A DNA stretch of 64,000 bases from Carcharhinus longimanus (lineage: Eukaryota), in the NCBI GenBank assembly GCA_030264375.1, contig JASCQW010000190.1, positions 43,588,337-43,652,336 of the forward strand, in the 5' to 3' direction. The notes below the pieces were generated by a model, which saw only the letters and a program-made list of their open reading frames with translations, made no database searches and was not told where the DNA came from. The translations under genes were made by a program, and so were the position numbers. Positions 2,071-64,000 of the stretch are shown in pieces (position 1 is the stretch's first letter; every line of letters begins with the position of its first letter).

Positions 2071-3698
2071 AGAAGGGCATGACGGACGTGGAGTCAGGAA
2101 CGGGGTGTGAGAATGCTCTGGAGAACGTTAATATATTGAACGAGGAAGTGTTGGGTATCCTAAATTGCATTAAAGTAGCTAGATCCCCAGGCAGACAAGG
2201 AAGAAATAGCTGGGACCTTAGCAGCTTTCGTTCCATCCAGAAGATGGGCGACTGAATATTTACCAGTCTTCTGGAACTTCAATGTTGTTCCATTGTTTAA
2301 GAAAGGAAGAGATAATCCAGGAAATTATAGGTTGGTAGCCTGATGTCTGTAATGCGGAAGCTTTAGGAGAAGATACAGGATGTACGCACATTTGGAAAAA
2401 AATGGACTAGTTAGTGACAGGCAGTGCAGTTTTATATGGGGAAGGTTATGTCTCACCAACTTGAATGAGTTTTTTGAAGAGGTGACAAAGGTAACTGATG
2501 AGGGAGAGGCTGTACATGTAATTTATATGGACTTTAGCAAGGTTTTTGACAAGGTCCTACGTGGCAGACTGGTACAAAAGCTAAAATCACATTGGATTTG
2601 GAGTGGACTGGCTAGATGGATACAGAACTGGCTTGATTATAGGAGAGAGACAGTAGCAGTGGAAGGGTGTTTTTCAGAGTGAAGATCTATAGTTAGTGGT
2701 GTTCCGCAGGGATCAGAGCGAGGACCTCTGTTGTTTGTAGAAGATATAAATGATTTGGAGGAAATGTGGGTGGTATGATTAGTAAGTTTGCAGATGACAC
2801 AAAGGTTGGTGGCATTGCTGATAGTGCCAGGGATTGTCAGAGGATATAAAAAGATATAGATAGACTTGAGACTTGGGCACAGAAACGTCAAGTTGAGTTT
2901 AATTTGGATGAATGGTAGGTGATGCATTTTGGAAGACCAAATTTAAATGTGAATTACATTGTAAATGGCAGAATCCTTAGGAATGTTGACATATGGAGGG
3001 ATCTGGGTGGGCAGGTCCACAGTTCCCTAAGTGATAACACAGGTGGCCAAAGTGATTAAGAAGGCACATGGCATGCTTACTTTCATCAGACGGGGCACTG
3101 AGTACAAGAGTTGGCAAATCATTTTACAGCTATTGAAAACCTTGCTTAGGCCACATCCGGAGTATTGTGTGCAGTTCTGGCCACCACACTACCAGAAGGA
3201 CATGGGAGCTTTGGAGAGAGTGCAAAGGTTCGCCAAGATGTTGCCTGGTCTTGAGGGTGTTGGCTATGAAGGGAAGTTGAATAAACTAGGATTGTTTTCA
3301 TTTGAAAGATGGAGGCTGAGGGTAGACCTGAGAGAGATCTACAAAATTATGGGAAGCATATGCAAGGTGGATAGTCAGAGGCTTTTTCCCAGGGTAGAAG
3401 TGTCAATTACAAGGGGGCACAGGTTCAAGGTGAGAGGGGGAAAGTTTTAAGGGTGATGTGCGGGGAAGATTTTAACGCAGAAAGTGGTGTTGCCTGGAAC
3501 CTGCTGCCAGAGGAGGTGATAAAAGCAGGCACATTAGCAACATTGAAGAGGCATCTAGATGAATAGGGAGGGAATAGAGGAATCTGGACCAGACCAGGTT
3601 AGAAGGTTCTTTTTAGATTCGTTAGGGCATCATGATTGACACAAGCTTGGAAGACTGAAGGGCTTGTTCCTGTGTTGTCCTTTTCTTTGTTCTTTGTT
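2070..3698 (+). mobile_element. 5'-truncated CR1 LINE (RT domain and 3' UTR)
   Basis: Fragments CLTNLNEFFEEVT, VIYMDFSKVFDKV, GVPQGS, KFADDTK, PEYCVQFWPPHY; 3' tail TTCTTTGTTCTTTGTT. Confidence 0.9.
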
Positions 3699-12212: not shown

Positions 12213-12404
12213 TAAGTACTCTAGTTTTAGACTTGGGTATGTCACTCTCAAGCTCAATGAGAAATGTATCGACACCTTAAAAAACAAAATATAGCACAAA
12301 AAGAGAAGAAACTATTGGTCAAATAACAAAAAAAGGTCAAAGTTTTAAGCAGTGTATTAAAGGAGAAAGCTAAAATAGAGAGTCAGAGAGATTTAGGGAG
12401 GGAA

Positions 12405-12840
12405 TTGCAGAGTTTGAGGGGGTTGAGCTATGAGGAGAGGCTGAATAAACTAGGCTTGTACTCGTTAGAGTTTAGAAGAATGAGGGAAGATCTCATTGNN
12501 NNNNNNNNNNNNNNNNNNNNNNNNNNNNNNNNNNNNNNNNNNNNNNNNNNNNNNNNNNNNNNNNNNNNNNNNNNNNNNNNNNNNNNNNNNNNNNNNNNNN
12601 NNNNNNNNNNNNNNNNNNNNNNNNNNNNNNNNNNNNNNNNNNNNNNNNNNNNNNNNNNNNNNNNNNNNNNNNNNNNNNNNNNNNNNNNNNNNNNNNNNNN
12701 NNNNNNNNNNNNNNNNNNNNNNNNNNNNNNNNNNNNNNNNNNNNNNNNNNNNNNNNNNNNNNNNNNATCTTACTGAATGGCGGGGCAGGCTCGAAGGGCT
12801 AGATGGCCTACTCCTGCTCCTATTTCTTATGTTCTTATGA
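12405..12840 (+). mobile_element. CR1 3' end (mostly N-gap) inserted in an L2 remnant
   Basis: GLSYEERLNKLGLYSLEFRRMREDLI; tail (TTCTTATG)n. Confidence 0.85.
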
Positions 12841-48925: not shown

Positions 48926-49710
48926 AAACAGACATACACAGACATACTGACAAAGACAACCTTCTTCCACCAGTGTTTCAATCTCAAACTCGAGGAGGTC
49001 AGTATCAGTATGGCTCTTCTTTCCTTTCACTAACCATCCTTGTGGTCTCATTCTCATTACACTTGTCAACTTAATATCAAATTTAAAATAGTACTGGGGC
49101 CCACATTCTTAAGGAATTGATCTGAGAACAGTGTTTGCCACGGGTATTTTACAGCCAGCAGAGGGAAGAGAAGAATTTTATGGAATCAACTGGAGGTGGA
49201 TTGGATTTCATGTCCTTGGCAGGAAAGGAGAAGGTTCTAAATCACTGCCATATCCAGTCCTAATACACAGTGTATATTTCTATTAGTAGGCTTGAAAAAG
49301 ACAAAAGAAGTGTACAACTTATTTGTCTTTTTTAATCGAGATCTACACAAAAAAAGGATTGGTCAGATGAATTGCTCATTAAAAACCAAGCATTTTGAAT
49401 CCCAGTTACTCCACCAAAAGCAATCACCATATTTTTCCAGAACATTAGCTAAAATGTAGATTAATGTTTCATCAGGAGTGAGAACAGTTAGAGATGAAAT
49501 TTCTACTCAACTTTTTCCAGTTCTGATGAAAGCTCACAGGACTGATTCTCTCTCCACAGATGTTGCCTGGTCTGCTCAGTATTTCCACATTTTATTTTAG
49601 CTTTCCAGCATCCACAATATTCTGCTTTTCGAAAATTAATATTGCCATGCAAAGTCAATGGTAATGACTGCTGAATGAACAAGTAGCACACTCTGTGCAG
49701 TTTTACTTTT

Positions 49711-50020
49711 GATGTGGGTATGCCAGCGTTGGACTGGCGTAAACACAGTAAAAAGTCTGACAACACCAGGTTTTAGTCCAACCNNNNNNNNNNNNNNNNN
49801 NNNNNNNNNNNNNNNNNNNNNNNNNNNNNNNNNNNNNNNNNNNNNNNNNNNNNNNNNNNNNNNNNNNNNNNNNNNNNNNNNNNTCTCTGTAACCTGTGAT
49901 CAGTGCTCCTTCCACTCACATTGTCAGCCACTTCAGGTCTTGAACAGCAGGTTAGGTGTAGTGAGTCTATTATCAAATAAATCAGCTGGACTAAAACCTG
50001 GTGTTGTCAGGCTTTTTACA
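49711..50020. mobile_element. Young short element with internal inverted repeats (probably Penelope-associated)
   Basis: AAAAAGTCTGACAACACCAGGTTTTAGTCCA ... TGGACTAAAACCTGGTGTTGTCAGGCTTTTT; CAGTTTTACTTTTGA on both flanks; near-identical start at 55908. Confidence 0.7.
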
Positions 50021-50959
50021 GTTTTACTTTTGACAGAGTGTGTTGACATTCAGGTACAATCCATTCAAACCAAAGGGCATCCAGCAAGTATTTAATTACT
50101 GCAGCCAAACACACGCGACAGAAGCAAGAAAAAGCACAAGATGTTGGAAAGACACAGGAGGTCTGTCAAACCTGGTGTTGTCAGACTTTTTACGGACAGG
50201 TTAACACATTTGTTTGAACACTCCCTCAGTTCTATTCAAAAATGTTACCAAATTGCTGTGCATTTAGGTTCTTGTTTTAGATTTCCAGCACTTGCATTTT
50301 CAATTTTTTTAAAATTTGGTGATGGAAGATATTTCTTTAGCTATATACAGCTGAACTATGTTTCAGCTATTTGACTCTAGACATTGCCGTTTAAGTCAGT
50401 TGGTTAGAAGAACTCAAGAGAAATGTTGCCATTTACTGCTTGCACCATCTATAACCTTCCAAGTAAAAGGGAATCACAGTATGAAAGAGTATATATGTAG
50501 CATAGACTGCCAATTAACTCAGTATAAACCATTCCACATTTTACTGATGTGTCATCAGGTCCCCTGCAAAAGAATTACTTGTTTTGCAGAAATTAGGAAT
50601 GTCCAGGACAAGAAACAACCATTGTGGTCCAACTGGACAGTTCCAGGGCTCTGCATATTAAATGCTTACCCTCTTGAATTTGCTGACACAAATTTTGACT
50701 GTTGTTCCTGGCGGCCCATTCCATTTTTGATCCTGACACACATGGGCTTTTAAAAGGAAAGGCACAACTTAACCGGCATGGTCAGCAGTAATATAACCAA
50801 ATGAGCAATTCTACTACCAGTCAGTTTTTTAAAAACTCAGCGAACTAGCTACCCAGTACTTCAACATTTAAAATAGGAGCAGACCACTGCCATGCATTCC
50901 CAGTCTCCAACGGGTAGAGTTCACTTTTCAGGCAACACAGTATAATAGGAACATGCCTT

Positions 50960-51490: not shown

Positions 51491-51978
51491 ATCATTCTCC
51501 CCACCCCCACCCAACGTCAGATCTTGAGTAAAATCGAATCGGTTGGCTTAAAGTATTTGACTTAAAAAGAAGTAAAATCCAATTACTTAAAGTCTCCCTG
51601 ACAGGAATCAAAACTGCTTCTGTTCTGTGTGTAAAACAGTCAAAAGGGATCAAAGTTCACTAGAATTCTTCAAATAGCACAATATCCCAAACTTATTTAT
51701 GTGCAACTCGCCATTTTGGGTACACAGGAGTTTACTTACTTATTGCATTTGTATAATTGGTTACAAGGGTGAAGTTCTTAAATTCAGTAGGAAATTGTTA
51801 CATAAAGTAGTTAATTTACTTGAAGATATACAATGAGAAAAGAATTACACAAGAGAACCCTCAGCTTCAATCACTGTACACTACCATGTGTTTCAGATGC
51901 CCAGCAGCTGTCCTGGCTAATGGAGCTCGGAACCAAGTCTGGTTTTTTGCATTGTGTGCATTGCACTATATCTGGGGC

Positions 51979-52476
51979 TGTTGGAATAAAATCAAAATTA
52001 AAGGATACAAAATGGTCACCTGGCACAAAATGAACTCTGGGAAAAGACATTAAGATGTGCTGACTTGGGCACAGACATTGCACAACAGAGTTAAAACCTG
52101 TTAGTGTCTAAATTACTGTAGGAAATAGACCAGACTTTAAGGCACCTTAGCTTGAGATAAAGCAGAGCCAAAACAATGAGTTTTGGTAATGAAATCAGTC
52201 ATTGATGGGAGGCATAAATGTATCTATTCTATGTACAACGATGTGCTAACTGCCGATGTCCGAACTTGTCTACTCTATGTATAACTGTGTGCTAATAGCT
52301 AACGTCCGTACTTGTCCATTATTTGAAAATGTATAAAAGATGTTCAACTGCCATTTTAAAGTTGAGAAGGTGACTGCATGCACCGCAGAGAGCCCAGCGC
52401 TTCTCCCGAAGCTTTGTCCGATAAATCTGCGTGTTGAATCTTGGATCTGACTCCGAGTGGTGATTTTCCCACAACA
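51979..52476 (+). promoter_or_regulatory. 5' LTR (498 bp)
   Basis: Starts TGTTGG after GGGC, ends CCACAACA before the PBS; TATAAAA at 52332-52338; ~47-bp tandem repeat in U3. Confidence 0.92.
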
Positions 52477-52479
52477 AAA

Positions 52480-52498
52480 CGGCGTAGTCAGGCAGGAT
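52480..52498 (+). other. Primer-binding site complementary to tRNA-Ser
   Basis: CGGCGTAGTCAGGCAGGAT vs expected TGGCGTAGTCGGCAGGAT (complement of vertebrate tRNA-Ser 3' end ...ATCCTGCCGACTACGCCA): one substitution and one inserted base. Confidence 0.85.
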
Positions 52499-52984
52499 CT
52501 CACTGTTGGTGAGTTAGTTGGTTGGCTTCGATAGGCGAACTGGAGTAGAGATGATCGAATCTATGGGAATCAGACTGAGCCAACAATGCAATTAAAAATG
52601 GGTGAAAATTAGGGAAATTTGTGGTACTGTCAGATAGAAACAGGAACCGATTGCTTGTGCTGATCGACTAAGGACAAGGAAGTGCCTGTCTCAAATGTAG
52701 CCTTAGACCGGTTGTTAAGAGGGGAAATCCCCCACACGAAGGTCAGGACCCTGAAGTGGGTATACAGGCACCAAGGCACTTAGGATCATGAAGCATAAGT
52801 GATAAAGGTCATTTAGCATCAAACTTTGTAGTGGCAAACAAACAAAGTTTGCCACCTGTTCACATAAAAGTTTGTGTAGTTTGTCTACTTGTCTGTTACG
52901 TTATAAAGCAGTGAGGTAAGGAGCTGATCACTCTGACCTAGAGCCGGACTCCAGTGGAGGAAACAAGTTGCCAAGGAGGTAATC

Positions 52985-54411
52985 ATGGCCATGGGCATAA
53001 ACAGAAATCCTAATGGTGGAAAAAACACGTTGCTAAGGGAGTAATCACGGCCAGGGGTGTAGAAGTCTGCAAGGTGGCAGGTAGAAAAACTAAGTGGGGA
53101 CCTGCGGAATCCCTTGTTGATAAATATATGACAGACAGACATGAGCTGATTAAGAAGATGCAAAGGGATGGCTGGGATGTTCTCAGACCTTAGAATAACA
53201 GAGAAAGTGGGTAAATGGGGACAAAAAAGAGACAAAACAAAAAAGGCAGGGGTCTTATTAGTACATCAATTAGCTGGACTAATTGAACAAGTAGTCGCTT
53301 CCACTAAAAAAGTGGAACAAAGATAAGGATAAGATTAAAAAATTAGAATCCAGAATAAGGGAATTGGCGAAGAGGAATCAAGTATTAGAGTAGAATCAAT
53401 GGGGAGGGGAAACTGTAGCTCTGCCCCCTTATGAGTCCACACAACAGGGACCAACCACCTCTCCAGAGGAAGGGGAAGCGCTAGAACTCAACTTGGCGCC
53501 AGTGACCCGAGGGGGAATGGACGCGCAGCCAACAGCAAATTACAAACCATCAACCCGGGCAAAAGACAACAGATAATGGCCTCCCTGGGTAAACTACAAC
53601 CTAGAAGCGCAAATACGAAGTTTTGGGATGAATTAGATACGGTTTGGGTAGGACACCAACTGCACCTAAGGGATATACACCAATTGGTTAGGGCCGTATG
53701 TCCAGCAGATAACTGGAGGCAGGTAGCCGGAGGGCCTGCCATTCCCCCAGCACAAGATTACAGTGGGGGACATTGGACACATGCAATCGCCCTAACAGCA
53801 GAAATAGATGCCCAACAGGCACCCTTCACCCTGTTTAAAACAGAAGTCCAAAGAGTTTTAGGAAATGCTCCTACTAATTGGAGTAGAATCGCAATGACCA
53901 AACAGCGAAAGGAGGAAGGAGCTTCTGAATATGGGGAACAGTATACCAGGAATACTCAGGGCAAGGAAACCCAGGCCGTGGGGATTGAGCTTTTATTCAA
54001 GCTTTCAAGGATGGGCTCTCCAGCACTCACCAAATCATCCTAAAGATGGGCGTGATCATGTGCCATGATTAGGATGAACTGGTGGAATGGACTAGTGGTG
54101 CACTTGGAGGCAGGAGGAGAAATCTCAGACGAGGACAAAACAGGAAAGGGTAGCCGCATCTGGTAGCGGGAGTGGACCTAAGCCCAAACTGACCTGCCAC
54201 AATTGTGGCCAACAAGGGCACTTTGCAAAGGAATGCTGGGTCCCAAGAAAAGGAAATAAATTTGGAAACAGTGGGAGACATTGTAATCATTGTAATAAAA
54301 ATGGACACACAGAAGCAATATGTTGGGACAAACATGGGAGACCCCCTGCCCCAATCCATGTCCATAGCAGAATTGGAGGAACTAAGGAACCTCGGAGATC
54401 AGCAAGACTGA
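52985..54411 (+). pseudogene. gag: ERV gag (disrupted); start position approximate
   Basis: Capsid-like ORF 53576-54043 with MHR-like KQRKEEGASEY; two CX2CX4HX4C knuckles CHNCGQQGHFAKEC (54195-54236) and CNHCNKNGHTEAIC (54282-54323). Confidence 0.85.
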
Positions 54412-55898
54412 TGGCCTGCAGTCCCCATTCATAAGGTAAGGAACTACGTGTCTGCATTAGTACAGGGCAGGCGATGTGTGATGCTGGTAGACACAGGAAC
54501 ATCAATGTCTGTCACTGACCTTCCCTTACACAATACAAGTAGGATGATTTATTTAACAGGGATAGGAGGGAACAAAACACCTGCCTACCTGAGTGAGACC
54601 ATGTTGGTAGGAATAAATAATTTGTATATACCTATGAGATTCTATGTATGTAAAAATAACGAGGTTACAATAATGGGAAATGATTTAATGAAGGAGTATG
54701 AAATATTGATTGGCTGGGGGAAGAGAGAATTAATCTGGTCAAAACAGAATGCTGGAAAACCAGAACAGGAAAACTCAAGTCACCTCGAGGCTATCAAGGT
54801 GGCCACAGCCACCACCAGAAATTGGCAACTAGAAACAGAGGGGTTTGGAGCCATCCATCCCTGGAACATGGGCAGAAATGAAATTCGACACTGGCCCAAC
54901 CAAAACTGACCCAATAAAGGTGCCCGGTCCGGAGCACAAATCCCACCGACACTATCCGATAAAACCGGAAGCAAAGGCAACTGTAGTATAAATAGTTAAA
55001 GGGTTCTTGGAGAAAGAAATCCTGAAGGAAACCACTAACTCCCCAACTTGGCCAGTGAGCAAACGCGACAGAAGTTACAGTCTCACGATAGACTACAGCA
55101 GCATCAGTAAAGTCACGTCCAAATTGCACCCCATTGTAGCAAGCCCCTCGACAATCCTGAATGGATTATCACCGGAGCACAAAATCTTTACTGTATTGGA
55201 TATAACCAATGGATTCTGGTCCCTACCCTTGGATCCCGAATCCCAAGACAAATTTTCCTTTACAGTGGGAGACAAACAGTACACATGGATTCACCTACTG
55301 CAGGGATTCCACAATAGCTCTGCTATCTTCCACTGAGTAATGAGTGACATCCTAAACAGGGTAAAACTGCCAGAGGGTAGCACGATTCTACAATACATGG
55401 ATGATATATTAATAGCTTCAGAATCTAAATCAGGACATCAAGGAGCACTACACCTAGTGTTGAATGAACTGAAAACCACAGGGTTAAAGGTCAGCCCCAA
55501 AAAGACACAAATTGGGAAAACACAAGTCCTATACCTAGAACACCTAATATCACAAGGGCTAAAAGAAATGCCAACAGACTGAAAGAAAGCAGTACAACAA
55601 ATGCCATGGCCAGTCACCGTGAGGAGTCAGAAAGGTGCTGGGATTGTTTAACTATAGCCAAAGTTTTATCCCAGAATTCGCAAAATTGGCAGAGCCTATA
55701 CAAAGACTAGTTAAAGAGGGAAAGCCGTAGAATGGGAACCTGAGCAAGAAGAAGCTTTTCACAAATTAAAGACAGAACTGATATCAGCCCCCGGACTGGG
55801 AGCACCAGATTCCAATAAAGATTACCACGTACACTGTAATCATGAAAGGGGGTTCTACTCCACAGTAGTAACGCAAGATCATGGTGATAAACGGAGAT
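54412..55898 (+). pseudogene. pol: ERV protease + RT + partial tether, copy 1 (disrupted)
   Basis: MLVDTG protease site, IMGNDLM, NSPTWPV, LDITNGFWSLPL, QGFHNS, QYMDDILI. Confidence 0.92.
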
Positions 55899-56072
55899 AG
55901 TAGTCATGATGTGGGTATGCCAGCATTGGACTGGCGTAAACACAGTAAAAAGTCTGACAACACCAGGTTTTANNNNNNNNNNNNNNNNNNNNNNNNNNNN
56001 NNNNNNNNNNNNNNNNNNNNNNNNNNNNNNNNNNNNNNNNNNNNNNNNNNNNNNNNNNNNNNNNNNNNNNNN
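55899..56072. mobile_element. Young short-repeat insertion plus N-gap at the duplication junction
   Basis: GATGTGGGTATGCCAGCATTGGACTGGCGTAAACACAGTAAAAAGTCTGACAACACCAGG differs at one base from the 49711 element. Confidence 0.8.
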
Positions 56073-59000
56073 ATAATTATGGTCGACAAGGGCATTTTGC
56101 AAAGGAGTGCAGGATTCCAGAGAAAGGAAATAAATTTGGAAACAGTGGGAGACGTTGTAATTATTGTAATAAAAATGGACACACGGAAGCAGTGTGTTGT
56201 GACAAACATGGGGAGACCCCTGCCCCAGTCCATGTCCACAGCAGAATTGGAGGAACTAAGGAACCTCTGAGACCAGCAAGATTGATGGTCTGCAGCCCCC
56301 ATTCATAAGGGTAAGAAGGAGGGAAGGATCTATGTGTCTGCACTAGTAGGGCAATGTGAGATGCTGGTGGACACAGGTGCATCCATATCTGTCACCGACC
56401 TTCCTTTACCCACTACAAGTAGGATGCTTTATCTAACAGGGATAGGAGGGAACAAAACACCTGCCTATCTGAGCAAGACCACGTTAGTATAATTAAACAA
56501 TTCGTACATACTTATGAGATTCTATGTATGTAAAGATAACAAAAGTACAATAATGGGAAATGATTTAATGAAGAAGTATGAAATTTTGATTGATTGTGGG
56601 AAGGGAGAGCTAATCTGGCCAACACAGGATGGCCGGAAAACCGGAACAGGAAAACTCATGAGCCATGTCGAGACTATCAAGGTGGCCACAGTCACCACCA
56701 GAGATTGGTGACTAGAAACAAAGGGCTTTGGAGCCATTTGTGCCTCTGTCCCTTCAGTTTGGGCCAAAATGAAATTAGATACTGGCCTAACCAAAACTGA
56801 CCCGATAAAGTGGCCCGGACTGGAGCATAAACCCCATCGACGGTACCCGATAAAACCGGAAGCAAAGGCAGCTGGAGTGGAAATAAAGGGTTAGTGGAGA
56901 ACAGAATCCTGAGGGAAACTACAGTACCATTAACTCCCCTACCTGGTCAGTGAGCAAACTCGATGGAAGTAACAGACTCACAATAGACTACACCACCCTC
57001 AATAAAGTCGCGTCCAAATTGCACCCCACTGTAGCGAGCCTCTCGACAATCCTGAATGGATTGTCACCGGAGCATAAAATTTTTACCGTATTAGATATAG
57101 CCAATGGATTCTGGTCCCTACCCTTGGATCCGAATCCCAAGACAAATTTGCATTTACAGTGGGAGACAAATAGTACACTTGGACTCACCTACCGCAGGGA
57201 TTCCACAATAGCCCCGCTATCTTCCATCGAGTAATGAGTGACATTCTGAACAGGGTAGAACTACCAGAGGGTAGCACAATTCTACAATACATGGATGATA
57301 TATTAATAGCTTCAGAATCTAAGTCAGGCTATCAGGGAGCACTATACCTAGTGTTGAATGAACTGAAAACCGCAGGGTTAAAGGTGAGCCTTAAAAAGGC
57401 ACAAATCAGGGAAACACAAGTCCTGTTTCCACGACGCTTAATATCACGAGGGCTTAAAGAAATGCCAACAGACTGAAAGAAGGCGGTACAACAAATGCCG
57501 CGGCCAGTCACCATACGAGGAGTCAGGAAGGTGCTGGGATACTTAACTATAGATGAAGTTCTATCCCAGAATTCGCAAAATTGGCAGAGCCTATAGAGAG
57601 ACTAGCTAAAGGGGGAAAACCAGCTTTAAACTCCATAGAATGGGAACCTGAGCAAGAAGAAGCCTATAATAAAGGCAGAACTTATATCAGCCCCCGGACT
57701 GGGACTACCAGATTCCAATAAAGATTTCCACATACACTGTAATAATGAAGTGAGGTTCTACTCTGCAGTAGTAATGCATGGCGATAAACAGAGACCCATA
57801 GGTTACTATTCAACAGCAGAAGGGTCGGTAGTAACCGACTGCCAAGATGCATAATCGCCTTAGATTGCGCCACCTGGGCCATAAAGGTTAGCGAACCAAT
57901 AGTAATGACACGAAGTATAATCCTCCACACCAAACACACCTTGGTGGAAATGCTAAATACAGGAAAGTTAAGGTCCGTCTTGAACGTGAGAAGGGCCAAG
58001 TGGGAAGTCGTCCCCCTACCTCCCAGCAAATCAGTTAGAATAGTAAGGGACACAGGAGATAACCCAATAGAAGGAATTCTGGATACAGGAGAACCACATA
58101 ACTGGGAGACGTAGATATGGATGTAGGAGGAGGTACGGTAAAGGATGTACTTTTAGCAACAGCTGAGGAGATCCTTTTCATAGATGGCTCACATAAATAC
58201 ATGGAAGGATCGCCCCGGACAGGATGGGCAATAGCAAATGAAAAATTGGAAACAGTAAAGTCAGAAAGAATTGACAGAGATCTATCCGCGCAGGTGGTGG
58301 AACTACTGGCATTCACAAAGGCACGAGAATTGTCTGAAGGAAAGACGATAAACATATATACTGATAGTGGGTATGCATTCAGGGTAATACACGATTATAC
58401 AATGGCATGGGGTAGAAGGGGGTTTGTAATCACGGGAGGAACTCCTATTAAACACCAACAAAGAATCGAGGCATTACTAAAAGCCAGCAAAAAACCCCGA
58501 GAAGCGGCAGTAATAAAAATTAAAGCGCATCAGAAGGAATCAGAAAGGGGTAACCCAGATTGGTTAAATTACAAACAGAACCAAGCCACAGGTAGAGCAG
58601 CGCAATTAGCATTAGAGCAGGAGGCAGTTAGCCAGTTGCCAATAGCAGTAACGAGCCAGACAGAAGGCGAAATAGATATTCAGGACTTACATGAGGATAC
58701 CACGAAAGAGGAAAAGGGGAAGTGGGAAGCACAGGGCGTGAGCAGAGGGACGGATAACATTTGGAGACAAAATGACAAGGTAATGGCACTGGACTGCATA
58801 CAAAACATCCTCTTGGGACTACACCATGGACTCTCACATGCGGGAAGAGAGGTCATGGCAACTAATCTAGGAAAAGAATGGGTGGAAAGGAATGGCAAGG
58901 GACATAGCTCAACACTGTCACCGATGCATGACATGCTCCCAATACAAGCTCAGTCAACCCATAAAAATTAAGATGGGGCATCAGCCCCGACCAAAGGGGC

Positions 59001-59790
59001 CCTGGGAACATCTGCAAATAGATTTCACAGGGCCACTGCCAACAGTCCCACAGCAAAACCTATTGTCTGATTATTATTGACCAGTTCACCAGGTGGGTAG
59101 AAGTGTTCCCTACTAAAAATTGTACTGCTACCACAGTGGCTAGAATATTGGCAGAGGAGGTAATCCCTAGATGGGGAGTACCCATACAAATTGATTCGGA
59201 TCAAGGGGCGACGCATTTCACCAGAAAGGCGGTAAAACAGTGTGCCAACTGATGGGAATAAAACAAAAATTCCACATCCCCTATCACCTGCAGAGTTCTG
59301 GAATGGTGGAACGCATGAACAGAACCCTTAAGATGCACTGGCCAAGGCCATGCAAATGGCAGGAAAAACGTGGACAGAAGTATTACCCACTATATTAATA
59401 AGGTTACGAGCCATCACAAACCGGACAACTGGATCAACCCCTTATGAACTAATGACAGGAAGGGCGATGCAATCACCAGAAAGCATCATAACAGGTGGGG
59501 CCGATGTAGTTCCATTAAAAGATACAATTAAAAGATATGCATCCAACTAAAAGGGATGCATAAATTAGTAAAGGATAATCAGGAAAAAAGAGACGGAGAG
59601 AGAGAGCTTGAAATGCTCCCCGACATCCCAAGTTGCATCATGGTAAAATCATTACCTGAAAAACCAGGGTTTGTACCAAATGGAATGGGCCATATGACGT
59701 CATAATTAGTGGAGATTCTTGTGCCTGTCTGGATATAAGAGGGAAAGGTGTACGGCAACATTGTACCCGGAAATGATTAGTGATATTAAA
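56073..59790 (+). pseudogene. pol: ERV gag C-terminus + protease + RT (copy 2) + RNase H + integrase (disrupted)
   Basis: LVDTGAS, LDIANGFWSLPL, LPQGFHNSP, YMDD; RNase H FIDGS/SAQVVEL/IYTDSGYAF; integrase HHGLSH..CMTC, LQIDFTGPLP, IDSDQG, SSGMVERMNRTLK. Confidence 0.93.
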
Positions 59791-59844
59791 GTGACCAGAG
59801 TGCTTACCCTGAAACAGGTGACGACTACAAGTAAGATTAACTGA

Positions 59845-61339
59845 CATGTTCGGGTTGGCAATACAGCCTTTGGGAAATTGTTAACATAGAGTAATAAGAC
59901 TGATATTTGCGTGTTGCTAACATGTCTAAGATTACATTCATATATATATATTGCATTACTCTATGTTGTCGTGATTGTAAGATTAACAGGGCTATAGGAT
60001 AACTTATTCTACAAGGCTCATGTACATTTATACAGTAATCGAGGTGTTACCCGTTAGCCCAATCTGTAGAGGCCCTATTTGTGGCCACCCCTGGGTGGAC
60101 TGCCCACAACTTACATACGGCAGATACCTTGGACACACCGTGTAAAGGACAAACAGACAAATATAAAAGGGTCATACAGGGAAGACGTGTAAAACTGATA
60201 AACACCACTGCTCCTGTTGTAGGGGGCTCCAGGGAGTGGGAAGAAGAGTATGCTCGGATGATGCAAGCTACCTGCTTTGCTTTTCGGGGCAGGGATGGGG
60301 ATGTGCATATGCCTTGGTCACCAAGAATGTTTCCTGTGTACAAACGCAGTGTGTCTGTCAGCACTGTCGGGTAAACAGAGGCCAGTTCACTTGTACCTGT
60401 AACAGCAAAGACGCCTGAAAGTAGCCGCGGGGAGACAACTTATTTGTGGTCAGTGTAATGGGACTCATGTCAGTTCAGCCGAATGGGCATACCCGTTTGA
60501 CGCTTACCAATTATAGGATCAGGCAGAAAGACAAGCGAACCCACTAATTTGCGGTATATACAGACCAGTAACCAGGATATTAAATGCTACTGGGCCAAGA
60601 AGGGATTTGTGTTCCTCCTTAACAGCACCTTCACAACGGCAACACCAACCCTCCCAAACCTTTTTGCAGTAGGTACAATAGGACCACTCACCATTCCATG
60701 CCCTCAAAAGGGGCATATCTGGGGAAAGATAGTGGCCTGGGCCATCAGGAAGGAATTCTGTGCCAATTGGGAAGTTCCGATCACACTGGGATTGTCATTC
60801 GGCTACAGGTTCCAATAGAAACCATATTATCTGTGGATTAACCATCCTGGGAAACAGTACATCAAAGGCACTGGAGGCCATCAACCAAGAATTGGCTGAA
60901 TTAAGATTATACGCACAGCAGACCCGCTATACCATAGACTATCAGCAAGCCCAACAGGGGCAAGTATGCACAATAATAGCAGACAGATGTATAACACATG
61001 TTACAAATGAATCCTACAATATTAGCCAAGTCATTAATAACATAAGAAAGCAGCTCGATGACTTTAGTCAAGGTCCCAAGAAGGGGAATAGTAGCTCCAA
61101 TGGTTATTGGGGGGATCCGGGGGTACTATTAAATGCACAGACTGATTATTCTCGCTGCAGTAATAATTGTCTGGTGCCGAATTATCGGGTGTCTCAATGT
61201 ATGTTGTAAAGTCATGATGATTCGGATTGTGCCAGGGGCCAGAGTGGTCACCAAAGAAGAACATCTGATGGGAGCTCCCGAAGACACCAAGGATGACGAC
61301 GATGAAGGAAAGGACGAGAAGGTGGGCGTCTACCTGTGA
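59845..61339 (+). pseudogene. env: ERV env (disrupted); start position approximate
   Basis: TM heptad/ISD-like NSTSKALEAINQELAELRLYAQQTRYTIDYQQAQQGQVCTIIADRC, membrane anchor LIILAAVIIVWC, acidic cytoplasmic tail; Cys- and N-glycosylation-site-rich SU fragments upstream. Confidence 0.88.
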
Positions 61340-61431
61340 ACACGTGACCTTTGGTTAGGGTCAGGCATATCAATTGCCGGATCCACGATGCTGCTAATGT
61401 TGATCCATCGGATTAGATCATAATCTTGACT

Positions 61432-61442
61432 AAAAGGGGGAG
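61432..61442 (+). other. Polypurine tract
   Basis: AAAAGGGGGAG one base upstream of the 3' LTR. Confidence 0.9.
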
Positions 61443-61443
61443 T

Positions 61444-61776
61444 TGTTGGAGTAGCTTCAGATAAAGCAGAGCCAAAACAATGAGTTTCAGTAACGAAATC
61501 ATCGATGGGGGGCATAAATGTATCTACTCTATGTATAACAATGTGCTAACTGAGGATTTCCGTACTTGTCTACTCTATGTATAACGATGTGCTACCAGCT
61601 AATGTCCGTACTTGTCCATTATTTGAAAATGTATAAAAGATACTCAGCTGGCATTGTAAAGTTGAGAAGGTGACTGCGCGCACTGCAGAGAGCCCAGCGC
61701 TTATGCTAAAGCTTTGTCCAATAAAACTGCATGTTGAATCTTAGATCTAACTCCAAATGGTGATTTTCCCACAACA
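61444..61776 (+). promoter_or_regulatory. 3' LTR (333 bp; lacks ~160 bp of U3)
   Basis: TGTTGGA...CCACAACA; TATAAAA 61632-61638; AATAAA 61720-61725; colinear with 52149-52476. Confidence 0.93.
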
Positions 61777-62198
61777 GGGCCTAACAGTGAAAAATGGACC
61801 AAGGCTAAAGACAATTAATTGATATATCTTTATGTAGAAACTATCAGCGATCATTCCAAATATTATGCATCTACACTTGATCTTCCAACTTCATATTTGA
61901 GTAAAACTATTAAGCTGGAAGTTGAATATATGTACTATAACATGTACACTTTGTATAACATTTAGGCATTAAAGCAGTTAAAATATGTTGGTTGGGTACA
62001 TGGAACATTGGTTAGTCTGGAAGGGAGGACTCAAAGAAAGTTTGGAGATTTCTGGTATAAACATGCACAAGTCCAAATGCTGCAGAAAAAGTGTTTGAAG
62101 ATACCTCCAATTTTATTCAAGTTCCACTACACTCATTTTTATCAACTTCAAATTATTGATGTGCTAGGTAATTAGACAGAAAAATGAAAAATACTCAC

Positions 62199-62242
62199 CA
62201 ATTGTAGAAATGTTCAACTTTCATTTCTCTTAAGTACAGCAT
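62199..62242 (-). CDS. 44-nt coding exon of the host gene, MLYLREMKVEHFYN(W), phase 0-2
   Basis: Acceptor CCAATTTTACAG, donor TTG|GTGAGT, only one open frame; splices in frame to 29800-29928 (…FYNW-VTKEV…). Confidence 0.65.
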
Positions 62243-64000
62243 CTGTAAAATTGGATGGCTGCTACCCTCTTGTGGTAGCAAATTATAATTTACACTTGAA
62301 TATCTTACATAGTGCCAGAAAGTTGTTGTTTACGTTAGTTTTCTAACAACCAAATTCCTTTATTAAAAAAATAAATTCCAACTTCATGATCTGGGTTAAA
62401 GGTCATTTGCTTATAGATAAGGAACTGGATTCCAAAGAGCTTCCAAAGAAGCTTTACCTGGATTAAAATAAAAACATAATTACTTTACTTGCGCTATGCT
62501 CTGGTTTCTTTTGCCTGCAATATTGGTGTAGCAGGGAATACAGAAACCCCTGCTCTTTGAGAGACTATTAAAACAAAGTAGATTAGTTTAAAATAGAGAC
62601 CACAGTGTGCCTTATAGGTATCACAATGTGCCTCACTTGTATATTTTACGAAGATATTGTCTGTATAAGTTCATATATATTCATGTTTGAACAAGTATTA
62701 TGGATTTAAACTGTATTTTTGTATTTTCTTGAGAGTTTTGGCCAACGAGCAACTTACCCCTAGGCATAATGGGAAATAAGTTTAGCGAGACAGATCGCAT
62801 TATTTTGGAACAATGAAGCAAAGAGCGTATACCATATTATCAGGGGCAGCCCAGGCAGCTACAAGCTACCAAGGTTTTTGAAATGAATAGAAAGATTCAG
62901 CTTCTAGTTGTAATGAATAGACATATTCAGTCTCCATTCATAAGAAGACAGAAAACAGACAAGAAAGATGACTCCCTTATGCAGTCCCTCCATAGGACTG
63001 CAGGTGTTGGGAGCAACCCTTGAACCTACCAGGGGGAGGAAGAGAGAGAAAGAGACAGACAGACAGAGAGAGAAGAACCCCTGGGTTTGGTTGATCAATT
63101 AATTCCTAATTCTGTTACAAGGTAGAATGCTATTAGCCAAAGTCAATAAAGTGAATTAATGTAATTGGACTGTGCTAATATAATGTCAGAGAGAAGTTGG
63201 AATCCTCCATTTCTCTCCCAATACGTGTAGTTCAAACAAAGAATGTCTTTAATTGCACACTATCTTTCGTAAGTTTTTGTGTTAGCTGATATCAGCTGAA
63301 TAAAAGCCACCCCGCCTCCCCAAAGTGGGGCACCCCGAGAAAATCCCCTTACAATTGGTCACTTATGTCTCTAATGTTTTATTCATTATTAATAACTTAA
63401 TCCTTAAATAAGTTTTGGATGATCAGTTCACAAAAGCATACATTGCTTCCTGCCATTGTACTAGATTCAATGAATCTATGGCTTCTTTCTGCTCTGTCCT
63501 TAGCATCTTTTGCCACGTACACAAGATCTATTGCTGGCTCCACTTGTCCTGTGCTCCACTTCTAACAAATATCTCATCCTGTGCACTCTTCAGGAATTAA
63601 TCTCTTTTTTATCTTCTTTGTTTTACTGCTGCCAACTATCAGATTTACAGATTAACTATCACTGCCCCATGCCATACATACCTCCACAATGTTCATTCAC
63701 CTATAAGGTTCTTATCATTCAGATATCTGCTGTATTGGCACTGACAGACACAGAAATCAACTGCTAACTTCTTCATCTCCTCCGTTAGGTGCCTCACCCT
63801 CTTTCATCCCCCACCACTCAGCCAGTTTCCCACTGGCATTAGCAGCACCTATCAGGTGGGATTCTCCCACCATTAGCATTTAAAAATGTTCATAAAGTGA
63901 GGCACACTGGCCAGCATGGCTTTATGGAGATCTTTCTTTACCCAGATCCTTTTAAAGGGTGTCCCCTTTAGGGAGGAGGCTACCCCTCCTCCCCCAACAA

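Follow-up and report, generated by a model that had tools for sequence, protein, structure and literature searches.

A 64,000-nucleotide stretch of the Carcharhinus longimanus genome (contig JASCQW010000190.1; hereafter the window) contains, at positions 51979..61776, an endogenous retrovirus (ERV) that probably goes back to a single germline insertion, now old and decayed, of a simple retrovirus with an envelope, in a host that is likely a shark. The virus belongs to an unnamed lineage of sharks and teleosts that likely sits on the class I stem and whose family leaves both 4- and 5-bp target-site duplications. An initial annotation of the element had described a complete cartilaginous-fish provirus combining a class III/spuma-like pol, tRNA-Ser priming, a two-knuckle Gag, a 4-bp duplication and env. 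Paired long terminal repeats (LTRs), a serine primer-binding site, a polypurine tract (PPT), a GGGC duplication and, in decayed form, gag, pro, pol and env were all found, as were the two knuckles and the reverse transcriptase (RT) and integrase (IN) motifs that it had quoted. The cartilaginous-fish host is likely correct too, as the closest named Pol is that of Mustelus asterias (84% over RT) and shark-metagenome runs contain small shares of the stretch. The word "complete" has to be withdrawn, because the element is interrupted by a 100-N gap flanked by a doubled gag end, protease and RT, its 3' LTR is about 165 bp short, and all of its genes are broken by stops or frame breaks.

In the proposed life cycle, the 5' LTR would first drive transcription. 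The RNA is predicted to be packaged by a Gag carrying two CCHC knuckles, and Gag-Pro-Pol would arise when ribosomes read through an in-frame UGA. Host tRNA-Ser and the PPT would prime reverse transcription; both sites are seen, and their use is presumed. The envelope protein would be of the gamma type, with a transmembrane subunit (TM) that lacks the third cysteine, so that the disulfide link between surface subunit (SU) and TM is likely absent. The integrase would cut with a stagger of 4 or 5 bp, and the family would have spread in a burst, followed by decay and the formation of many solo LTRs.

Phylogenetic position of Pol

Reference viruses were drawn from viral_contigs. Snakehead retrovirus (SnRV; L057/P0024, 10,688 nt) was recognised by its length and RT row, and the other references carry provisional labels assigned by motif, length and clade. 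Pol sides with retroviruses rather than with Gypsy elements, and both a tether and an RNase H are present. In the 48-row RT tree, the only tree with class II rows, the window RT falls in a clade with sequences from Mustelus, Heterodontus and Pimephales (support 97), outside the epsilon, gamma and class II viruses (99); the order of this shark and Pimephales clade relative to SnRV and the foamy viruses is not settled there, and one reference first labelled lentiviral (P0058) falls with the beta rows. Pimephales P0003 forms the sister branch of the shark clade (99.6/100).

The class I-side placement comes from trees spanning RT to IN (870 columns), in which the lineage and (eel,(Astyanax, class I)) are sister groups with a support of 99.6/98. 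The same placement is recovered under a mixture model (98), from RT alone (91/75) and from the connection (92/52). In the tree of RNase H plus IN, the Heterodontus sequence is misplaced because most of that part is missing from its protein. Over the whole of Pol, scores are higher for the epsilon and gamma references than for SnRV (521 vs 329 bits), although SnRV carries a long insert.

Approximately unbiased (AU) tests were carried out under two models on sets of 22 rows, eight having been dropped from the 30-row Pol set. Placement of the lineage inside the epsilon viruses is rejected (p 1e-5 and 2e-4), as is placement inside the gamma viruses (p 3e-5 or less). Grouping with SnRV gives p 0.029 and 0.031, grouping with the foamy viruses 0.009 and 0.029, and grouping with SnRV and the frog group together 0.007 and 0.025. 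The phylogenetic check called for by the initial annotation, with SnRV, foamy, epsilon and gamma rows, therefore agrees with its view that this Pol does not lie inside the epsilon or gamma viruses, and with its denial of foamy identity. The class III/spuma-like assignment fares worse, since in the RT-to-IN trees the lineage goes with class I, eel and Astyanax, and the AU tests disfavour both foamy and SnRV, though SnRV is the best named RT match. Lokiretroviruses have an Env like the fusion proteins of negative-strand viruses and a Pol that is sister to all retroviruses; the gamma-type TM of the window element and its Pol beside class I speak against membership, in trees without a labelled lokiretrovirus row.

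The family, its duplications and its genes

Genome searches returned 549 LTR, 1644 RT and 522 TM candidates, among which 40, 150 and 150, respectively, were scored. The scored LTRs are 81–90% alike and the RT proteins reach 85%, and the LTR search suggested by the initial annotation did recover solo LTRs. The LTR tree is star-like, with terminal branches of about 0.07, and the family numbers hundreds of copies. A second LTR subgroup (L025/L153–L182) comprises 591 candidates that have about 69% identity to the window LTR and share its ends and primer site. Across the LTR loci L012–L182, a 3-base spacer separates the PPT from the TG end, and two or three bases separate the CA end from the primer site.

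The nearest proteins are, in order, a cluster containing Mustelus asterias, an unnamed protein, and sequences from Heterodontus, Pimephales, eel and Astyanax. Two predicted shark proteins, P0034 of Pristiophorus (annotated as histidine decarboxylase) and P0054 of Mustelus (with Pfam families of the chitin-synthase type), match the window Pol at 70–77%; they are likely gene-model fusions, and would place the family in sawsharks too. Searches of viral_contigs and metagenome_contigs returned no relative, and viral_contigs yielded no record of the ERV-L type. The literature search found no description of the family or of its mixed duplications, which does not establish absence from print. The proposal of a poorly described basal shark lineage thus stands in so far as no name was found for it in that literature, but the lineage is not confined to sharks, as cyprinid relatives are its sister.

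Duplication lengths were read from 43 LTR rows, 16 of which belong to proviruses as their 5' or 3' LTR and were not counted. The 27 remaining solo LTRs comprise eight with a perfect 5-bp duplication, eight with a perfect 4-bp duplication, six with a 4-bp duplication containing one mismatch, and five with none; the corresponding chance rates are about 1/1000, 1/250 and 1/20. Among two-LTR proviruses, the window element, L126 and L127 have perfect 4-bp duplications and L025 a near 4-bp one, and the second LTR subgroup (30 loci) yields two perfect and two near 5-bp cases and one near 4-bp case. Each of the two main LTR subclades contains both lengths, with five changes among 22 labelled rows in a count made without a shuffle control. 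The 4-bp duplication, although genuine at the window locus, is no constant character of the family. One duplication length is listed per virus, and the length can differ within a genus, in the accessible parts of two published comparisons (PMC4422553, PMC3790719).

Pfam matches over their cut-offs were obtained on the window for a zinc knuckle, a retroviral protease, RT, RNase H and the integrase core, and an Ebola-like HR1-HR2 TM match lies just below its cut-off (PF22307, 23.3 vs 27 bits). On copy L014 the same family reaches 27.4 bits against the cut-off of 27; a weak TLV_coat match was also obtained. A TGA is present at 14/14 gag-pro junctions of family copies (blastn), and in 7 of 15 copies, without repair, a single frame runs through the knuckle, the TGA and the protease motif, from which we infer that Gag-Pro-Pol would be made by UGA read-through. 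The TM loop is CX6C, without the third cysteine, in all five copies found. An immunosuppressive-domain-like (ISD-like) stretch and a heptad-repeat TM are present, as in gamma-type Env proteins, but the CX6CC of that type is not. The third TM cysteine forms the SU–TM bond, and CXnC is described as a minority form in the portion of the anamniote Env survey available (10.1101/2021.11.23.469661).

The Gag protein of the Heterodontus relative (P0018) aligns to the window gag and likewise has two knuckles. Its best match is SnRV (E 1e-8), level with an alpharetrovirus, and it matches gamma Gag proteins poorly; neither P0018 nor the window piece gave a Pfam match to Gag_p30. An Atlas search with the Gag of this relative returned only generic Gag clusters, under 0.9. 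No dUTPase match was found in the open-frame relatives.

The insertion site and the structure of the locus

The two ends of the provirus belong to one insertion, because a 1358-base contig of run X10 passes directly from the left flank to the right flank with a single GGGC, as expected of an empty site. This supports the duplication named in the initial annotation and rules out a chance GGGC match between two unrelated halves. Contigs bridge the left junction in all four runs scored and the right junction in three; runs X6 and X7 span only part of the flank and carry no information on the site. Run X17 is near-identical to the window and may not be independent, and since the other three junction-bearing runs are about 1.5–3% diverged, the insertion is common to relatives. 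The LTR pair is 87.5% alike over 329 bp, with 39/332 sites differing (23/298 outside CpG) and a Kimura two-parameter (K2P) distance of 0.13. Because this difference is close to that between the X10 contig and the left flank (33 differences in 456), the insertion is likely about as old as the split from X10. No absolute age is assigned, as the rate assumed in Han 2015 gives an implausibly old date.

Table 1. Features of the provirus in window coordinates
Feature	Position	Strand	Evidence or remark
Left target-site duplication GGGC	51975..51978	+	Single copy at empty site in run X10
5' LTR, 498 bp, TG...CA ends	51979..52476	+	Left junction bridged in 4/4 runs
TATA-like box in 5' LTR	52332	+	
Primer-binding site, tRNA-Ser(AGA)	52480..52498	+	Two deviations from host tRNA complement
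gag, broken, putative start	52985..54411	+	Heterodontus Gag P0018 aligns, E 7e-13
Two CCHC knuckles in gag	54195-54323	+	
TGA stop closing gag	54409-54411	+	
First protease and RT copy, broken, ending short of RNase H	54412..55897	+	
Beginning of a very abundant non-viral repeat, at contig end	55907..55972	.	98.5% to 49710-49775
Assembly gap, 100 N; real size may differ	55973..56072	.	
Second, different gag end/protease/RT copy, broken	56073..57794	+	
RT connection, RNase H, integrase (HHCC, core, C-terminal part), broken	57795..59772	+	
RNase H	about 58168-58554	+	Pfam
env, broken, limits approximate	59760..61340	+	Gamma-type TM
ISD-like stretch and CX6C loop of TM	about 60886-61008	+	
Polypurine tract	61432..61442	+	
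3' LTR, 333 bp, U3 short by about 165 bp	61444..61776	+	Deletion junction in run X17 covered without differences
AATAAA in 3' LTR	61720	+	
Right target-site duplication GGGC	61777..61780	+	Right junction bridged in 3/4 runs

The features of the locus are listed in Table 1. The U3 of the 3' LTR is about 165 bp short, as the usual LTR of the family is about 500 bp long; the missing stretch is whole in the 5' LTR and in nine of the ten other LTR loci compared, and in the tenth the match begins only at position 51. The X17 contig at the right junction (window 61626-62585) starts with 193 letters that are not listed as aligning to the window 3' LTR; a different allele, a solo-LTR version of the site, a concealed second piece and chimerism of the window LTR are candidate explanations. 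The primer site differs from the 3' end of the tRNA-Ser(AGA) genes of the same genome by one substitution and one extra base; eight pattern matches to these genes were found, and ARAGORN calls Ser in all four checked. A scan of the window for tRNA and Rfam families gave no match.

The gag end, protease and RT occur twice, at 54201-55897 and 56075-57794, on either side of the gap. The two copies are 83.8% alike with gaps over 1744 columns (range 84–88%) and differ over RT by a K2P distance of 0.136; at 88% identity, the two RT copies are not alleles. Most likely, the doubled stretch consists of two different family copies joined here by the assembly. The two RT copies are not sisters, being no closer to each other than to other copies and separated by supported branches, and internal duplicates of 81–86% identity lie beside N gaps at 5 of 20 other RT-anchored loci (L014, L018, L024, L030 and L032). 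A real doubling, either a tandem of the form LTR-internal-LTR-internal-LTR that the gap conceals or a duplication that arose while two co-packaged genomes were being reverse-transcribed, has the smaller but still considerable probability. It would accord with the proper flank of one insertion site being held by both contigs, with the similarity of the RT-copy distance to that of the LTR pair, and with the presence of pieces of both copies at orthologue-level identity in other runs. Also in its favour, no near-identical twin turned up: for the right copy, no other place exceeds 85% among the 40 of 205 candidates that were scored, and none was found for the left RT among the scored candidates. 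The 193 leading letters of the X17 contig count against a real doubling. A sliding comparison of the doubled stretch with ten paralogues showed no clear breakpoint. Proviruses of this assembly may often contain several copies, and gap-spanning "complete" ones can combine two different copies.

An abundant short repeat occurs at window 49710-49775, 49884-50200 and 55907-55972, and contigs break there; at the last of these sites, the summed depth is 85,000-296,000 in its bin. Open stretches at window 3031-3450 and 12327-12498 are presumably remnants of ORF2 of long interspersed nuclear elements (CR1 type). The window's list of open reading frames contains no evident host gene.

Rival placements and comparison with known systems

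Several points weigh against the placement and history preferred here. Among named viruses, SnRV gives the best RT match (41.7%), ahead of the epsilon viruses at 37–38%, although the SnRV-leaning RT and Gag scores may be ancestral likenesses. In the RT-to-IN trees, natural open-frame relatives stand in for the broken gene of the window, and the trees are without ERV-L, ERV-S, CmiERV-I and labelled lokiretrovirus rows. The RNase H plus IN tree alone leaves the position unsettled, SnRV has a long branch (1.76) and may be drawn away from its true kin, groupings with SnRV or with foamy stand unrejected by the Shimodaira–Hasegawa (SH) test, and fast searches (5000 replicates) supplied the constrained trees. 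Regarding the duplications, each of the four two-LTR proviruses that were checked looks 4-bp; because the 5-bp cases are all solo LTRs and three of them cluster, two integrases sharing one LTR are possible. Lastly, X8, with a flank diverged by 8%, seems to hold the LTR while X10, at 7%, is empty, so that there is no clean clock; the X8 contig reaches only 30 letters into the LTR (window 51507-52008), and the order may reflect rate differences or incomplete lineage sorting.

These points bear most directly on the reading of the element as an ordinary member of the SnRV-like clade (Huo), like CmiERV-I, whose split from SnRV would be a long-branch or sampling artefact. Besides the RT and Gag scores, this reading, which we consider unlikely, can draw on the in-frame gag-pol stop of SnRV, on the serine primer site common to CmiERV-I and, as far as the accessible part of PMC11089739 goes, on the binning of most chondrichthyan ERV RTs in clade III. 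It conflicts with the AU results for both groupings, with the supported class I-side placement and, allowing for the SnRV insert, with the whole-Pol scores, and SnRV itself has one knuckle, another primer site and an Env without the TM loop of the window. Somewhat better placed, though still a minority view, is the possibility that the lineage is already covered as basal "epsilon-like" class I (Pol-LE.1 or LE.2) with a gamma-type Env and differs only in label. This would be compatible with the preferred reading, and the two probabilities overlap. The portion of the preprint available (10.1101/2021.11.23.469661) describes gamma-type-Env ERVs in six cartilaginous fishes, Pol-LE clades and CXnC variants, and the present trees do put the lineage beside class I; on the other side, it lies outside the WDSV-type epsilon viruses and three epsilon-like fish ERVs in a set without the published Pol-LE rows (AU p≤2e-4), and no Gag_p30 match was found in it.

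A foamy-like or ERV-L/S-type class III element is very improbable. The IN motif IDFTGPLP does resemble the foamy and ERV-L forms. Serine priming as in HERV-S and XtERV-S, and the ERV-L-like 5-bp duplications that some family members have, point the same way in the available portions of the literature. Against these stand the two zinc knuckles, absent from foamy-like fish ERVs and XtERV-S, the lack of dUTPase matches in the open-frame relatives and of a GGGTG PPT junction, the AU result for foamy, and the MuERV-L RT row, which differs by eye at the quoted motifs. Foamy identity itself is rejected. Foamy viruses and foamy-like fish ERVs have a Gag without Cys-His boxes, a GGGTG PPT-LTR junction and a Lys, Asn or Thr primer (PMC5210030, in the part available), and none of these is found in the element.

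With the preferred placement on the class I stem, a more ambitious reading may be entertained, though it is doubtful: an undescribed shark-teleost lineage with Gag and RT features like those of SnRV, a Pol that as a whole leans towards class I, a gamma-type Env without covalent linkage, and one integrase producing duplications of 4 bp and of 5 bp about equally often, as a snapshot of a shift from 5-bp to 4-bp spacing. Few members have been described on the branch between the SnRV/class III-type and the gamma/epsilon retroviruses, for which this family supplies hundreds of dated copies and young teleost relatives. Integrases are normally listed with one length, and a near-even mix of both in one family would allow testing what sets the stagger. 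Further work would best turn to the stem position and to the mix of duplication lengths.

Most single features of the provirus have precedents, and so does their mixture. Statements on published elements here follow the accessible portions of the cited papers. CmiERV lineage I, an SnRV-related ERV of the elephant shark (Han 2015, PMC4422223), shares with the window a cartilaginous-fish host and, in its scaffold-2 sequence, the identical 18-nt serine primer site after a 3-nt spacer, and by eye it has similar RT motifs and a gamma-type TM. It differs, again by eye, in having a single knuckle instead of two, a CX6CC TM and a longer, unrelated LTR, and its RT and RNase H motifs are closer to the frog proteins P0005 and P0006. 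XtERV-S and HERV-S also join tRNA-Ser priming to a non-class-I pol and a class I-like TM (PMC8278194, PMC5210030), the pol of XtERV-S being class III. As described there, XtERV-S has no zinc knuckle and carries a dUTPase, ERV-L-type gag and pol, CX6CC and a uniform 5-bp duplication, and the window family does not share the ERV-L/XtERV-S set of absent knuckle, dUTPase and uniform 5-bp duplication. Xu 2018 found cartilaginous-fish ERVs to be scattered rather than basal.

SnRV resembles the lineage in RT, in Gag by way of the Heterodontus relative, and in its in-frame gag-pol stop, but this stop is UAG rather than UGA, and SnRV has one knuckle, accessory frames, a different primer site, which we take to be of the Arg type, and a long Env without the ISD/CX6C loop; it is not sister to the lineage in the Pol trees. 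Class I is the nearest named clade in the RT-to-IN trees and shares the gamma-type TM and, as predicted here, a read-through-type gag-pol layout, whereas the lineage is rejected from within epsilon or gamma, lacks a Gag_p30 match and has two knuckles. Its mixed duplications also contrast with the single length listed for each virus in PMC4422553. Described relatives probably include the cyprinid elements Grar.ERVi.1, Grar.ERVi.4 and Rrut.ERVi.3, published among ERVs that invaded recently and given no genus there (PMC10435555), whose RT rows agree by eye with Pimephales P0003 at nearly every letter. These cyprinid relatives have about 49% RT identity to the window element and, in contrast to it, reside in teleosts with identical LTRs and intact genes.

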